Shown in pieces: positions 45,756-50,063 of a DNA stretch of 64,000 nucleotides; positions within the stretch are counted from its first letter, which is position 1, and each line of letters starts with the position of its first letter. Both the position numbers and the translations under genes were made by a program. This DNA comes from an uncultured Planctomycetota bacterium (GTDB taxonomy: Bacteria > Planctomycetota > Phycisphaerae > Tepidisphaerales > Tepidisphaeraceae), in contig CAWJEN010000006.1 of NCBI GenBank assembly GCA_963841915.1, forward strand, positions 512,001 to 576,000. Reading direction: 5' to 3'. The notes beneath the pieces are model-generated. The model worked only from the letters and a program-made list of their open reading frames with translations, had not been told where the DNA came from and did not search any database.

Positions 45756-46835
45756 CTACTCCGTCTCGGTGTTGGCCTGATCCACGAGGGCGGGTATGGC
45801 CGTCGGGTCGAACCAGCGTTGCCGTGCGACGATGGTGCCGTCGGGCTTGACGACGATGGCAAAATCACCCGCCTGACCGTCGGCGATGTGCTCCAGCAAA
45901 ACATCGTCCATCGTGTCGAGTACCACCGTCACGCCCGGGCGATTCGTCGGAAGCCGCTCGCGAACCACCCGGGCGGCGGCGACGCGATCATCGGCGGAGG
46001 CGTGCTGCGGGATTGAAATATTCTCCTCTTCGTTTCGGGCAACACCGCCGTCGGGGTGGCGCTCGCGGGTGTAGACGACCACGAGGTCTGCCTGCCGATC
46101 AGTCGAATCGCGAAGTTGATCGATCAGCCAAGGCAGGTCGGCCACCCGATCGCGGAACGACGGGGCCGACCAGGACCCCAAGACAAAGATCGTCGGCCGA
46201 TGCTCGGCCAACAGGTCACCGAGCGTGACGTCGTTACCTGTTCCGGTCAGAAGCGCCATGTCGGCCGGTAGCGGCTTCATCACGCCGCCACGGAGTCGGT
46301 CGGCAAAGCGGGACGGCATGGGTGCCTCGTCCACCGACGCTGCCTTATCGCCGAAGCCACCGCTGCCACGGACGTTCTCGGGCATCTTGGCTTCGTTGCC
46401 CTCGGGCATGTTCTGCCGGCGGTTGGGGTCCCGCCTGTCGCCTTGCTTGCGGGCGGCCTGCATCTTGGCTTGCAGCGCCTTCTGCTGGTTGGGCGTCAGG
46501 ATGTCGCCCAAATCGGTGCGAAAGCGGACGAACCGCTCGCGGGCGGCCTTGGTGCGGGCTCGGCGGTCGTCGCCGTGCGTGTCGTTGATGTTCTTGAGGT
46601 CGGCCTGAAGATCCTTAACCTTGCCGCGAAGCTCGACTTGCTGGTCCTCCGTGAGGTCAAGGCCTTGCACCAGCTCGATCACTTGTCGCAGATACCTGCC
46701 GCCTTGGCCCTGAAGGTTGGAACGACGCTGCTCGGCTGCGGGCCGTGTTGCCGGTTTCGTCGTCTGGGCTGACGCGACGCTTCCGGCAACGAGCGTGGCA
46801 GCGAGGGTGAGCGGTAAAAGCAGGTTGCGTGTCAT
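45756..46835 (-). CDS. Exported protein: Spy/CpxP-like LTxxQ helical region plus iodothyronine-deiodinase-like thioredoxin fold
   Basis: Signal peptide; LDLTEDQ and ILTPNQ motifs; RPTIFVLGSWSAPSF, VYTRERHP, IPQHASADDRVAAA, VVLDTMDD. Confidence 0.7.
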   Translation of the reverse strand: MTRNLLLPLTLAATLVAGSVASAQTTKPATRPAAEQRRSNLQGQGGRYLRQVIELVQGLDLTEDQQVELRGKVKDLQADLKNINDTHGDDRRARTKAARERFVRFRTDLGDILTPNQQKALQAKMQAARKQGDRRDPNRRQNMPEGNEAKMPENVRGSGGFGDKAASVDEAPMPSRFADRLRGGVMKPLPADMALLTGTGNDVTLGDLLAEHRPTIFVLGSWSAPSFRDRVADLPWLIDQLRDSTDRQADLVVVYTRERHPDGGVARNEEENISIPQHASADDRVAAARVVRERLPTNRPGVTVVLDTMDDVLLEHIADGQAGDFAIVVKPDGTIVARQRWFDPTAIPALVDQANTETE

Positions 46836-46918: not shown

Positions 46919-46958
46919 AAAAAAAGTGCCGCCCGGGTGGGGGAAAAACCCGGGCGGC
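46919..46958 (-). terminator. Rho-independent terminator (minus strand)
   Basis: 11-bp perfect stem GCCGCCCGGGT/ACCCGGGCGGC followed on the minus strand by AC and 7 U; no minus-strand CDS ends upstream of it. Confidence 0.8.
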
Positions 46959-47110
46959 GGTAGGCCGAGGGCGCTGGACGGAAAGGGGAAATTCCGACCA
47001 GCGAGGGGGCATCCCTCGGCCGAATCTGAACAAGATGTCTCCGCTGCACCGTCTTGAGTTCCCGCCTTCTAAAGCTGCGTCTGACTGGGGCGACACAGTA
47101 CGGAGGTAAT
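46919..47110 (-). ncRNA. Candidate small regulatory RNA with C-rich loops
   Basis: Orphan terminator, nested hairpin at 46963-47021 and sigma28-like promoter at 47145-47118; not matched to a known family. Confidence 0.55.
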
Positions 47111-47117
47111 TCGTTTA

Positions 47118-47145
47118 CTATCGATAATTCGTTCGTGATGGCTGA
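47118..47145 (-). promoter_or_regulatory. Sigma28-like promoter for the candidate sRNA
   Basis: TCAG-N16-ATCGATAG on minus strand; overlaps direct repeats TAATTCGTT at 47107 and 47125. Confidence 0.35.
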
Positions 47146-47341: not shown

Positions 47342-48487
47342 ATGACAAACCGAGCCGCCCGATCGATTACCCGTTCCGTCCGCCGTGTAGCACTGTCTGC
47401 CTTGGCGGCGGCGGCGGTGGTCTCTGCCTTTGCTGTCGCGCCGGTCCAGGCCGAGCCTCAAGCCGTTGGTGTCAACGCCGAGCAGGACGAAAGCACCCTG
47501 TTCATCCGTTTTCGTGACCTTCGCAATGGCGGCGTCCTCGAAACCAGCATCGTCACCTACGTCAACGACGCAGGCCAGGAGGTCGACCTCATCGGTGCCG
47601 TCCATGTCGGTGACGAGGCGTATTACGATCTGCTCGACGAGCGCTTTGCCGGGTATGACGTGCTGCTGTACGAGATGGTCAAGCCCAAGAACGTCGACAT
47701 GGCCGCCCGCAACCGGGCGACGGAGGAGCCGCCATTTGCGATGAAGCTCATCGGCGGGCTGCAGAAGGGCATGCAGCTCGCGCTCGAACTCGACTTCCAA
47801 ACCGAGGAAATCAACTACTCTGCTGCTAATTTTGTCCACGCCGATCTTGACCTTGAAACATTCATGCAGCTCCAGGAGGAGCGTGGCGAAAGCTTCCTTG
47901 ACCTCATGATCAAGCAGATGGTCAACGACATCATGCGACCGGCCGAGGCCAACGGGCGGGCTCAGCCGCAGGTGTCGCTGCTGGAGATCATGGATGCAAT
48001 GAACGCGCCCGACCGTGCCCGTCGACTCAAGCTGTTGTTCGCCCGTGAGCTGTCACGCATGGACGACCTGTCGGCCGTCTTCAACTCAGGCGAAGAGGGT
48101 TCGGTCATCCTCGATGTGCGAAACGAGAAGGCGGTCGAAGTGCTCGACAGCGAGCTGGCCAGGGCCGGCATCGACGAGATCGGCATCTTTTACGGGGCCG
48201 CTCACATGAAGGGCATCGCCGAACTGCTTGAAGAGCGTGGCTTCCGCCGCCAGGGCCAGCCGGAATATCTCGTGGCTTGGGACATGACGCTCGACAACCG
48301 CGGGCGTCGCGAGATGCAGGAACTGACGCGTCAGGCCATAATCGAGAATGCGGGTGGCGCGGCAGAAGGTGGCGCGGCAGCGGCGGCGATGAAGGCCGAG
48401 CTTGACGGACTGCGTCGTGAGAACGAAGCCCTTCGCCGCCAGGTGCAAGCCCTTCGTCAGCAGCTCGAAGCTGCCGACAAAGAGTAA
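47342..48487 (+). CDS. Conserved exported hypothetical protein (possibly TraB/TIKI-like) with C-terminal coiled coil
   Basis: Signal peptide; VDLIGAVHVGD, LLYEMV, FVHADL, RN, IFYGAAHM. Confidence 0.7.
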   Translation: MTNRAARSITRSVRRVALSALAAAAVVSAFAVAPVQAEPQAVGVNAEQDESTLFIRFRDLRNGGVLETSIVTYVNDAGQEVDLIGAVHVGDEAYYDLLDERFAGYDVLLYEMVKPKNVDMAARNRATEEPPFAMKLIGGLQKGMQLALELDFQTEEINYSAANFVHADLDLETFMQLQEERGESFLDLMIKQMVNDIMRPAEANGRAQPQVSLLEIMDAMNAPDRARRLKLLFARELSRMDDLSAVFNSGEEGSVILDVRNEKAVEVLDSELARAGIDEIGIFYGAAHMKGIAELLEERGFRRQGQPEYLVAWDMTLDNRGRREMQELTRQAIIENAGGAAEGGAAAAAMKAELDGLRRENEALRRQVQALRQQLEAADKE

Positions 48488-48538: not shown

Positions 48539-49765
48539 TCATGCGGCCATGGCGACATCGTCCTCAGTCTCGCCCTCAGGATCGCCACTGAGACGGGAGC
48601 AGATGTCTTGGAGTCGCTGAATGGCAACAGCGGCTTCTGCAACGCTCATTGTCGCGTCGAGGCTTACCACCGCCTCGGCGGCGGCTTCAGTGACGGGCGT
48701 GAAGCCGAAGCTCGTCCCGCCGCCACGCAGGCTCACGCACAGGGCCCGGCACTTGGCGAGATTATCACTCGTGACGGCCGACTGCAGGTCGCTGCACAGG
48801 CTGGCTGCGTTGTTGACGAAGTCGACGACCATCGGCCTCATTTCCGCTTGACTGCTGACGGTGCTGTGAATCTTCTCTCCGTCGCTGCTTGCTCCACCTG
48901 AATTGGCGAGCCAGCCTGCGACGCTGGCGATGAGCTTCTCTGCGTCGTAGGGCTTGCTGAGGATGCCACACGCACCGGCCTCGCGAACTCTGCGAAGCGT
49001 CTCCTGGTTCGACTCGGCGGTGCAGGCGGCGACCCGCGGGACGGCTACGTCCAGGACACGCCGCACGACCTCTTCGGCCGGAACGTCTGCTTCGTCACCG
49101 GCAAGGTTCAAGTCGACGATGGCCAGCACGAACGGGTTCTTCGCCGACTGGTTGGCAAGGGCCTCGCAGGCCTCGCTGAGCTTGGAGACGCCGGTCAGTT
49201 CGATTTTGGTCCGACGCAGGTGGTGCTGCATGAGACGTCGATCAAGCTCATTGTCGTCGAGCAGGAGCACGCGGCCGCTGACCGTCTGCGGGTTGCGGGC
49301 ATCAACCTCGAGCACGTTTGCGTTCTCGGGATCGAGGTAAAGCTTGGGAAAGATGCGCCGGTCAAACTTGACGCCGACGGTGTGCCACGAGCCAGCGATG
49401 TGGTCGCAATGCTGTACCTGTCCGCGGACGGTGTCTTCGCCACCGATGTAGCGGTTGAGGGTGACGTCGCAGCGGGTTCCAACGTGCAGGTAGCCGCCGT
49501 GGATGAAGCTCAGGCCACCAGCGGAGAGGTCACGGGTCAGAACGGTGCGTTCGGTGATGGAGCCGCCGGGGTGGTGGACCAGGAGTCCGACGCCGCTACG
49601 TCGGTAGGTGATTCGGGCGCTGCGGCGACCGCTTTTGCCGTTGTCGGCAGCGTCTTTGGCATCAAGACGGTCGAGGAGTGCTTGAAGCTGCTCCTCCTGC
49701 TTGCCGTTGCCGCTTTTTGGCTGCATGACGGCCTTGCCTGGCTGCTTGAGCGATCGCGATTGCAT
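48539..49765 (-). CDS. PilZ - receiver - Hpt-like signalling protein
   Basis: RRSAR (RxxxR) and DLSAGG (DxSxxG); LLLDD, IVDLNL, SKPY; Hpt-like SLRGGGTSFGF. Confidence 0.82.
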   Translation of the reverse strand: MQSRSLKQPGKAVMQPKSGNGKQEEQLQALLDRLDAKDAADNGKSGRRSARITYRRSGVGLLVHHPGGSITERTVLTRDLSAGGLSFIHGGYLHVGTRCDVTLNRYIGGEDTVRGQVQHCDHIAGSWHTVGVKFDRRIFPKLYLDPENANVLEVDARNPQTVSGRVLLLDDNELDRRLMQHHLRRTKIELTGVSKLSEACEALANQSAKNPFVLAIVDLNLAGDEADVPAEEVVRRVLDVAVPRVAACTAESNQETLRRVREAGACGILSKPYDAEKLIASVAGWLANSGGASSDGEKIHSTVSSQAEMRPMVVDFVNNAASLCSDLQSAVTSDNLAKCRALCVSLRGGGTSFGFTPVTEAAAEAVVSLDATMSVAEAAVAIQRLQDICSRLSGDPEGETEDDVAMAA

Positions 49766-49865
49766 GATGAGGCGTTGGGTGACGTCGTCAGGTGTGGTGT
49801 TGCTGGTGGACGAAGGCGTCGTGCCTGCATCGCAGCCGGTGTTGGAACCCCCGCCCACGCCTACT

Positions 49866-49893
49866 TTGTCGACCGACTCAAGGGGACGGTTTA
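49866..49893 (-). promoter_or_regulatory. Sigma28-like promoter
   Basis: TAAA-N16-GTCGACAA about 100 bp upstream of ATG 49765. Confidence 0.45.
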
Positions 49894-50063
49894 AGAGGTC
49901 TGACAGAAGATCGGCCCGATGAGCACGGAGCCCCTGCCGCATGTGGCTGCGAGCGCAGCTATGGAGGAACGATCATCGACGGGTTTAAGCTGCAGGCACG
50001 TTCAGGCCGACGCGTAGGTTCCTGCTCCGCTCGTTCAGGTCGCTCTCACCGCCTTTAGATGTC

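Follow-up and report, generated by a model that had tools for sequence, protein, structure and literature searches.

Does the minus strand between positions 46919 and 47145 of the window (the whole 64,000-nt stretch of DNA that was analysed) encode a small RNA, and if so, does that RNA act in trans or on the gene that follows it? The locus lies between two divergent genes. Upstream of the RNA, on the plus strand, is a TraB/PrgY/GumN-family gene (47342..48487, putative start), a conserved syntenic neighbour that lies outside the RNA; downstream, on the minus strand, is a gene with a deiodinase-like domain (45756..46835). The original prediction was a new small RNA with three unpaired C-rich segments. 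Our analysis indicates that it is a divergent copy of a lineage-wide, multicopy small-RNA family that is apparently uncatalogued.

Architecture of the RNA in the window

All of the predicted structural elements were found on the minus strand where they had been placed: a nested hairpin with a bulge and an apical loop, an 11-bp terminator with a C-rich loop, and a U7 tail. By folding, the outer helix (P1) pairs 47013..47021 (5' strand) with 46963..46971 (3' strand), and it covaries in the family. P1 is followed on its 5' side by a 9-nt bulge (47004..47012) that contains C5 and forms the first exposed tract (unpaired probability 0.998). The inner helix (P2; 5' strand 46992..47003, 3' strand 46972..46983, by folding) has 6+5 bp in this copy and 8 bp in most copies. 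It closes an 8-nt apical loop with C4 (46984..46991; unpaired probability 1.0), the second exposed tract. The intrinsic terminator hairpin occupies 46928..46958, with the third exposed tract, C5, in its loop (46939-46947), and the U7 tail occupies 46919..46925. The predicted unpaired probability of the three C runs ranges from 0.998 to 1.0, and the fold of the 227-nt stretch has a z-score of -3.67, with 1 of 200 shuffles equally stable.

Among 18 strict terminator-like hairpins genome-wide, this terminator alone has CCCC in its loop. The terminator stem is nearly identical in all four genus mates, again with C5 in the loop. As proposed, no called gene ends at the terminator, and the upstream gene is divergent.

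The 5' part of the original prediction fared less well. A 5' end at 47145 is unsupported; the sole fitting -10 hexamer (TAnnnT) within 330 nt is at 47095..47100 on the minus strand, and taken alone it is at chance level. Counted from this hexamer, the RNA would be ~170 nt long (46919..47088), with a 3' end set by the U tail and a tentative 5' end. This segment is matched by our covariance models R1-R3. The proposed sigma-28 promoter was not upheld: the best minus-strand match agrees with 7 of 12 letters of a sigma-28 consensus, and ~11 such matches are expected per 500 nt. FliA is encoded in this genome; upstream of this RNA, the FliA-type match is at chance level, so the RNA is not assigned to a sigma-28-dependent class. 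It should also be noted that the best local sigma-28-like match (9/12, with ~0.3 expected per 500 nt) is on the plus strand at 47070-47096 and faces the TraB gene, away from the RNA. The 9-nt direct repeats described upstream are present (47107-47115 and 47125-47133) but are absent near the copies in all seven of the closest relatives checked.

A multicopy family across the host lineage

A DNA search matched the 3' part of the RNA in 4/4 genus mates. With a core covariance model of 61 positions, we detected 240 copies in 107 of 141 host-family genomes, covering 62 of 76 genera, at one to seven copies per genome; a hairpin-plus-terminator model recovered the RNA in 98 of the 141 genomes. The models were built iteratively and 27-38 candidates were scored per genome, so a miss in these counts does not equal absence. 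One genome, G006, enters as a tally row only and supports no positive claim. The 141-genome family is probably Tepidisphaeraceae (Phycisphaerae). Beyond it, none of 128 other Phycisphaerae genomes carried the RNA in one search, a further search gave one candidate match in 129 (E 0.008), and none of 149 genomes of other Planctomycetota carried it.

The genome studied here has one copy only, with no paralogue as a second good match. This copy is among the most divergent, scoring 44 bits compared to 70-74 bits for typical copies. Elsewhere (L227:1521-1580 and 2245-2304), one short gene is flanked by a pair of minimal copies that are nearly identical, lie 700 nt apart and have separate promoters.

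Helices covary and C tracts are retained

When 17 core hairpins were aligned with MAFFT without regard to structure, leaving out three length-divergent genus copies including the one in the window, 13 of 17 pairs had two-sided changes. Paired cells make up 92% of this alignment, compared to 48-64% when the partners are slid. A model-fitted alignment of 29 copies gave two-sided changes in 26 of 28 pairs, a figure biased by the fit. MAFFT lost register on copies that differ in length, and the pair counts do not draw on those alignments.

Folded individually, 85 of 95 copies parse as the nested hairpin. Of the 85 parsed copies, 78 have a P2 of 8 bp, 60 a loop of 10 nt and 71 a bulge of 7-8 nt; CCCC occurs in 84 loops and 79 bulges. 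The loops of the family are poly-C ending in U. One P2 strand sequence dominates the stems (53/85), the C tracts are retained where stems vary, and G-U pairs together with two-sided changes preserve the helices. Copies from this genus depart from the geometry or drop one C tract, with the others retained.

We also assembled an independent set from metagenome and viral sequences picked on the bulge end, P2 and loop only (n = 77: 80 listed among at least 120 metagenome stretches, plus three viral, minus three short and three duplicate sequences). An outer helix of at least 8 bp was present in 73 of the 77, compared to 5 in the control, and a U run followed the helix in 50. Across the family, helices covary and the C runs stay unpaired, in agreement with what had been expected of homologs.

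Promoters and transcript forms

A sigma-70-type promoter motif, TTG-N16/18-TAnnnT, is present within 260 nt upstream of 59 of 74 genomic copies, compared to 9.3 in shuffled sequence and 7 on the reverse strand. The members of the independent set with enough flank gave nearly the same result (59/74, compared to 8.8 in shuffles and 6 on the reverse strand). This TTG-type promoter was not seen upstream of the five copies of this genus.

The transcripts are predicted to take several forms. In 29 of 95 copies the promoter lies at most 7 nt from the hairpin, and in 21 of these 29 a U run directly follows the hairpin. Judging by sequence, these 21 copies would encode a ~60-nt RNA in which a single hairpin doubles as the terminator. 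Long forms of 100-260 nt, the copy in the window included, have further hairpins after the core and then a U tract; extra downstream hairpins with CCCC loops are present in 38 of 74 copies. Copies linked to nuoC have a ~90-nt, two-hairpin 5' part that closes in a U tract. In these copies (L075, L079, L082, L091-L106, L120-L128), the second 5' hairpin ends in U7 directly 5' of P1, which is possibly an attenuation site or a processing site that releases the minimal form. A conserved small ORF, as in a dual-function RNA, was not seen in the 5' extensions.

At the family level, the RNA has the features of the small-RNA class: a promoter and a terminator of its own, apart from neighbouring genes, and a conserved accessible seed. 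The promoter of the copy in the window is less certain. Of the original claim of an undescribed trans-acting small RNA, one part is strongly supported by conservation, covariation and predicted promoters, namely that a structured RNA not described before is transcribed on its own and exposes several C-rich segments. A rough scan in one genome, three orthologue checks and one pattern search yielded no conserved complementary mRNA target.

Candidate targets

The C-rich segments had been labelled as anti-Shine-Dalgarno-like. The 16S rRNA of the host ends in the canonical anti-Shine-Dalgarno sequence, CACCUCCUUU, and the enriched Shine-Dalgarno (SD) words are AGGAG and GGAG. The label is only partly right. 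In 60 of 74 family copies, CCUCCU spans the loop-stem junction, half-buried in P2. The copy in the window does not contain CCUCC, its exposed tracts are homopolymeric C, and it shows no significant preference for SD sites.

Targets were predicted with a rough duplex scan, corrected for accessibility, of 2,420 of our own gene calls in one genome. The best predicted partners of the copy in the window are G runs. At -7 kcal/mol, 14 of 323 SD-led starts were hit compared to 32 of 1210 coding windows, which is not significant (p = 0.14); other cut-offs gave no significant difference either (p = 0.13 and 0.26). When a typical family copy was scanned against this genome, which is not its own, SD-led starts were favoured over coding sequence (10/323 compared to 11/1210, p = 0.006). 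Thus, the proposed target prediction returned G runs as top partners but no significant SD preference for this copy.

Other target tests were similar. Across 141 genomes, an extended SD-complementary site occurs before ATG 919 times, compared to 894 for the reversed pattern, showing no enrichment. Upstream regions show no excess of G-run words, and the long G tracts of the genome lie mostly outside leaders. For three candidate leaders (those of a NusG paralogue, a Wzc-like gene and an HNH gene), the G run is not retained in orthologues. Because the target tests were mostly negative, we consider the tracts better termed poly-C than anti-Shine-Dalgarno.

Several features of translation signals and G-rich sequence were observed along the way. 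By our own gene calls, ~494 of ~2,035 ATG-started genes in this genome have TAnnnT 5-9 nt before the start and no -35 consensus (leaderless), and ~217 have GGAG in the SD window; across the whole genome, leaderless-looking genes make up roughly a quarter of the ATG-started calls, and genes with an SD word about a tenth. A ~26-nt hairpin with a G-rich loop is conserved 5' of UpxY/RfaH-like genes in several family genomes (L175, L177, L178, L179, L183, L193). It may be an ops-like site, a CsrA-type site or a loop-loop partner of the C-rich RNA; it was not seen at the NusG-paralogue homologue of this genome (G000:C5:1213486). At G000:C6:1405488, a G13 tract appears to break a gene whose translation, by eye, resembles a dehydrogenase E1 alpha subunit, possibly through phase variation or an assembly error.

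Proposed mode of action

The best reading of the family, to which we give a probability of about 0.6, is a stand-alone, trans-acting, Hfq-independent set of sibling small RNAs that would pair with G-rich mRNA, by analogy with LhrC and RepG. The two-helix hairpin, conserved across the family, keeps two poly-C tracts single-stranded in the predicted fold. Behind a sigma-70-type promoter of its own, it would be transcribed as a discrete RNA that ends in a U tract right after this hairpin (~60 nt) or after further hairpins, often with C-rich loops (100-260 nt). The C tracts could then seed pairing with G-rich single-stranded mRNA, either at G runs in leaders or at G-rich ribosome-binding regions, and in typical copies the P2 strand with CCUCCUU might extend the pairing. 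Several targets would thereby change in translation or stability, without Hfq.

Hfq was found in none of 41 family genomes searched. In this genome, ProQ was not found and KhpA/B gave no match over the cut-off; there are two CsrA-family matches. The fixed geometry of the hairpin (an 8-bp P2 in 78/85 copies and a 10-nt loop in 60/85) is unusual for a pairing RNA and counts against the pairing reading. The stems of the cuckoo RNAs, unlike those of this family, vary freely according to the portion of that report available to us (PMC4615179).

Viral and mobile copies and a possible protein decoy

Clear copies of the RNA are present on six IMG/VR viral contigs, representing 6 of the 14 loci returned by our loosest pattern. 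Three of the six viral copies are inside virion-gene modules; two lie directly 3' of a tape-measure gene, and the third has a terminase/P63C gene pair on one side and the portal gene on the other. At L248:3110-4306, the terminase and portal genes of a lambda-like head module enclose both a P63C-domain gene and the RNA, an arrangement that resembles a moron insert. GenBank phages gave no match, and plasmids gave a single partial match that we attribute to chance. On a further viral contig (L372:1-800), a 9-repeat CRISPR array (36-nt repeats, spacing 71-73) lies ~100 nt downstream of the hairpin RNA. No cas gene was recognised by Pfam among the three ORFs upstream of this array, and a CRISPR array adjoins the RNA at 1 of 220 loci.

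A subgroup of chromosomal copies shares common flanks. Nearby are signal-peptidase, PIN and MmeI genes and what looks by eye like part of a tRNA 3' end, at which no gene is called by ARAGORN. The common flanks and these neighbours suggest that the subgroup sits in integrated elements.

Fixed geometry and phage carriage point to a second reading, which we consider unlikely: the RNA could be a protein-binding decoy or scaffold, in which poly-C tracts at fixed spacing titrate a C-binding protein, with Rho or a KH-type protein as possible examples, and phages and integrated elements exploit the same protein. The nearly invariant helix and loop lengths, the dominant stem sequence (one P2 strand in 53/85), the lack of a convincing mRNA target, and the placement of minimal copies in phage head and tail gene modules and in integrated-element-like regions are all consistent with a decoy. 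However, the fixed geometry was partly selected by the models that found the copies, and the genus copies alter it or shed one tract while retaining the others, which fits redundant pairing seeds. Furthermore, KhpA/B does not exceed the cut-off in this genome, and no gene for a partner protein is linked to the copies.

A further unlikely idea concerns the ~60-nt self-terminating hairpin, whose two poly-C tracts at fixed spacing might either act as a decoy of a C-binding factor of the host or silence mRNAs with G runs in general, and which phages might have captured as a stand-alone insert in virion modules to redirect a host circuit. If this were true, a single lineage-wide RNA would be common to host and phage in a lineage without Hfq and with many leaderless mRNAs. 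That phages carry copies in their structural modules suggests that the RNA takes part in the interplay of host and phage.

Neighbouring genes do not support a general leader function

The original prediction offered, as its alternative, an attenuating leader for 45756..46835. As a cis-acting leader or attenuator, the RNA would control its downstream gene through terminator read-through switched by a binder of the C loops. In the window, the downstream gene is co-oriented and begins 63 nt past the match. Moreover, co-oriented downstream genes follow 31 of the 67 copies with a call, two phage contigs have the unit between a tape-measure gene and the gene after it, in the same orientation, and the long nuoC-linked copies have a hairpin and U tract immediately 5' of P1.

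The wider family argues against this alternative. Of 74 copies, 36 face a convergent gene downstream, 31 are followed by a co-oriented one and 7 have no gene called there, and the functions of downstream genes are unrelated among copies, also among those that are co-oriented. Copies in 4/4 genus mates are divergent from the same TraB gene, and their downstream genes differ; the deiodinase-like gene adjoins the RNA in one of five genomes of the genus, the one studied here. Since the downstream gene varies among genus mates and is convergent in 36/67 copies, we do not retain the leader for 45756..46835, and since downstream functions are also unrelated, a leader role is rejected as the general function. 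A cis attenuator or riboswitch would always be found 5' of co-oriented, functionally related genes, which these copies are not. The bulge C run is retained in copies whose P1 has no G run to pair with, and therefore it is not a switch strand. Because many copies are self-terminating hairpins of ~60 nt and a convergent gene lies downstream of about half, we favour a stand-alone RNA over an attenuator, and regard the latter as improbable.

The upstream side of the RNA is more constant. The upstream gene is a co-oriented nuoC in 25 of 47 cases scanned, a sample that mostly leaves out copies known to adjoin TraB. At three loci nuoC and TraB are both upstream, which ties the copy in the window to the main orthologous position. 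Beyond the TraB gene, window positions 48539-49942 encode a PilZ-receiver-Hpt fusion protein with an unusual domain order.

Finally, we regard it as highly improbable that mobile elements have spread a REP-like or insulator element, such as a dispersed DNA palindrome or a promoter-terminator cassette, with no functional RNA: genomes have up to 7 dispersed copies and some copies are in phages and near att-like sites, but the promoter and U tail are strand-specific, G-U pairs and two-sided changes preserve the helices, the position beside nuoC and TraB is orthologous across genera, and this genome has a single copy.

Comparison with known RNAs

Novelty stands after comparison with Rfam, as no family was matched at its gathering threshold. 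In Rfam 15, the window gave only a tRNA elsewhere, and 12 family loci and 20 core hairpins were nowhere near threshold. Atu_C7 (RF02501) scored 28.0 bits against the copy in the window (E 2.8e-4; gathering score 45) and ar7 (RF02342) scored 24.2 bits (E 0.02; gathering score 60). Both resemble this copy in having a C-rich-loop hairpin followed by a terminator. Because these scores are far below the gathering scores and neither model matches typical family members, we consider the likeness architectural only. 6S RNA was also considered and rejected: the genome has no RF00013 match, and the family folds as a series of local hairpins, with minimal copies of ~60 nt, as opposed to a long rod with 5'-3' pairing and a central bubble. 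RsaE of S. aureus and RoxS of B. subtilis have several unpaired C-rich seeds, but each is a single-copy RNA with a different fold, whereas this family is multicopy, folds otherwise and has no Rfam match.

We found no publication on a small RNA of this lineage in the full-text literature, which was searched partly with broad queries and largely outside subscription journals. Planctomycetes are absent from the main text of two genome screens by the Breaker laboratory (PMC11109978, PMC8632094). A catalogue of viral candidate RNAs mentions Phycisphaerae 104 times in its host columns, and our motif strings were not found in the supplement files of it that were searched (PMC10690425). A 2022 review, in the portion available, puts the annotated small-RNA families of the whole PVC group at eight (PMC9029176). 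With few small RNAs catalogued in Planctomycetota, the present work adds a well-defined, highly conserved multicopy family. The ~60-nt form is unusually compact, as one hairpin is both seed carrier and terminator. The lineage consists of abundant polysaccharide-degrading soil bacteria; since it has no detectable Hfq and has cultured members, among them Tepidisphaera mucosa, Humisphaera borealis, Fontivita pretiosa and Terricella alpina (PMC13514998), chaperone-independent riboregulation can be tested in it.

Three known systems are closest in design, and our account of each follows the available part of the respective report. The cuckoo/ar14/CcsR RNAs of Alphaproteobacteria have two to four adjacent simple hairpins, each with CCUCCUCCC in its loop, and variable stems (PMC4615179). 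They share with this family a multicopy, modular make-up and pyrimidine-rich loops, and the long forms here likewise add C-rich hairpins. Unlike cuckoo RNAs, this family has a nested hairpin, poly-C tracts ending in U in the loop rather than CCUCCUCCC, and conserved stems, so we do not count it as a member.

RepG of Helicobacter pylori uses a C/U-rich terminator loop to pair with a homopolymeric, phase-variable G repeat in an mRNA leader (PMC8295292). The proposed action of a C-rich hairpin loop on a G run would be the same here. In contrast to RepG, this family is multicopy, has two tracts per hairpin, and yielded no conserved G-repeat target.

LhrC1-5, Rli22 and Rli33-1 of Listeria monocytogenes form a group of up to seven siblings with several C-rich sites each, and their target pairing is reported to be independent of Hfq (PMC8079631). 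LhrC has two adjacent stem-loops and a single-strand joint, and its UCCC motifs are placed in loop A, in the linker and in the loop of the terminator (PMC8079631). Like LhrC, the family described here is multicopy with several C-rich sites, one of them, in the copy in the window, in the terminator loop. The three C-rich sites are placed differently, however: two belong to a single nested hairpin, one in its bulge and one in its apical loop, and the third is in the terminator loop. The family also belongs to another phylum and lacks an Rfam match, and membership of the LhrC group was rejected. By analogy, the family would work most like LhrC and RepG while belonging to neither.
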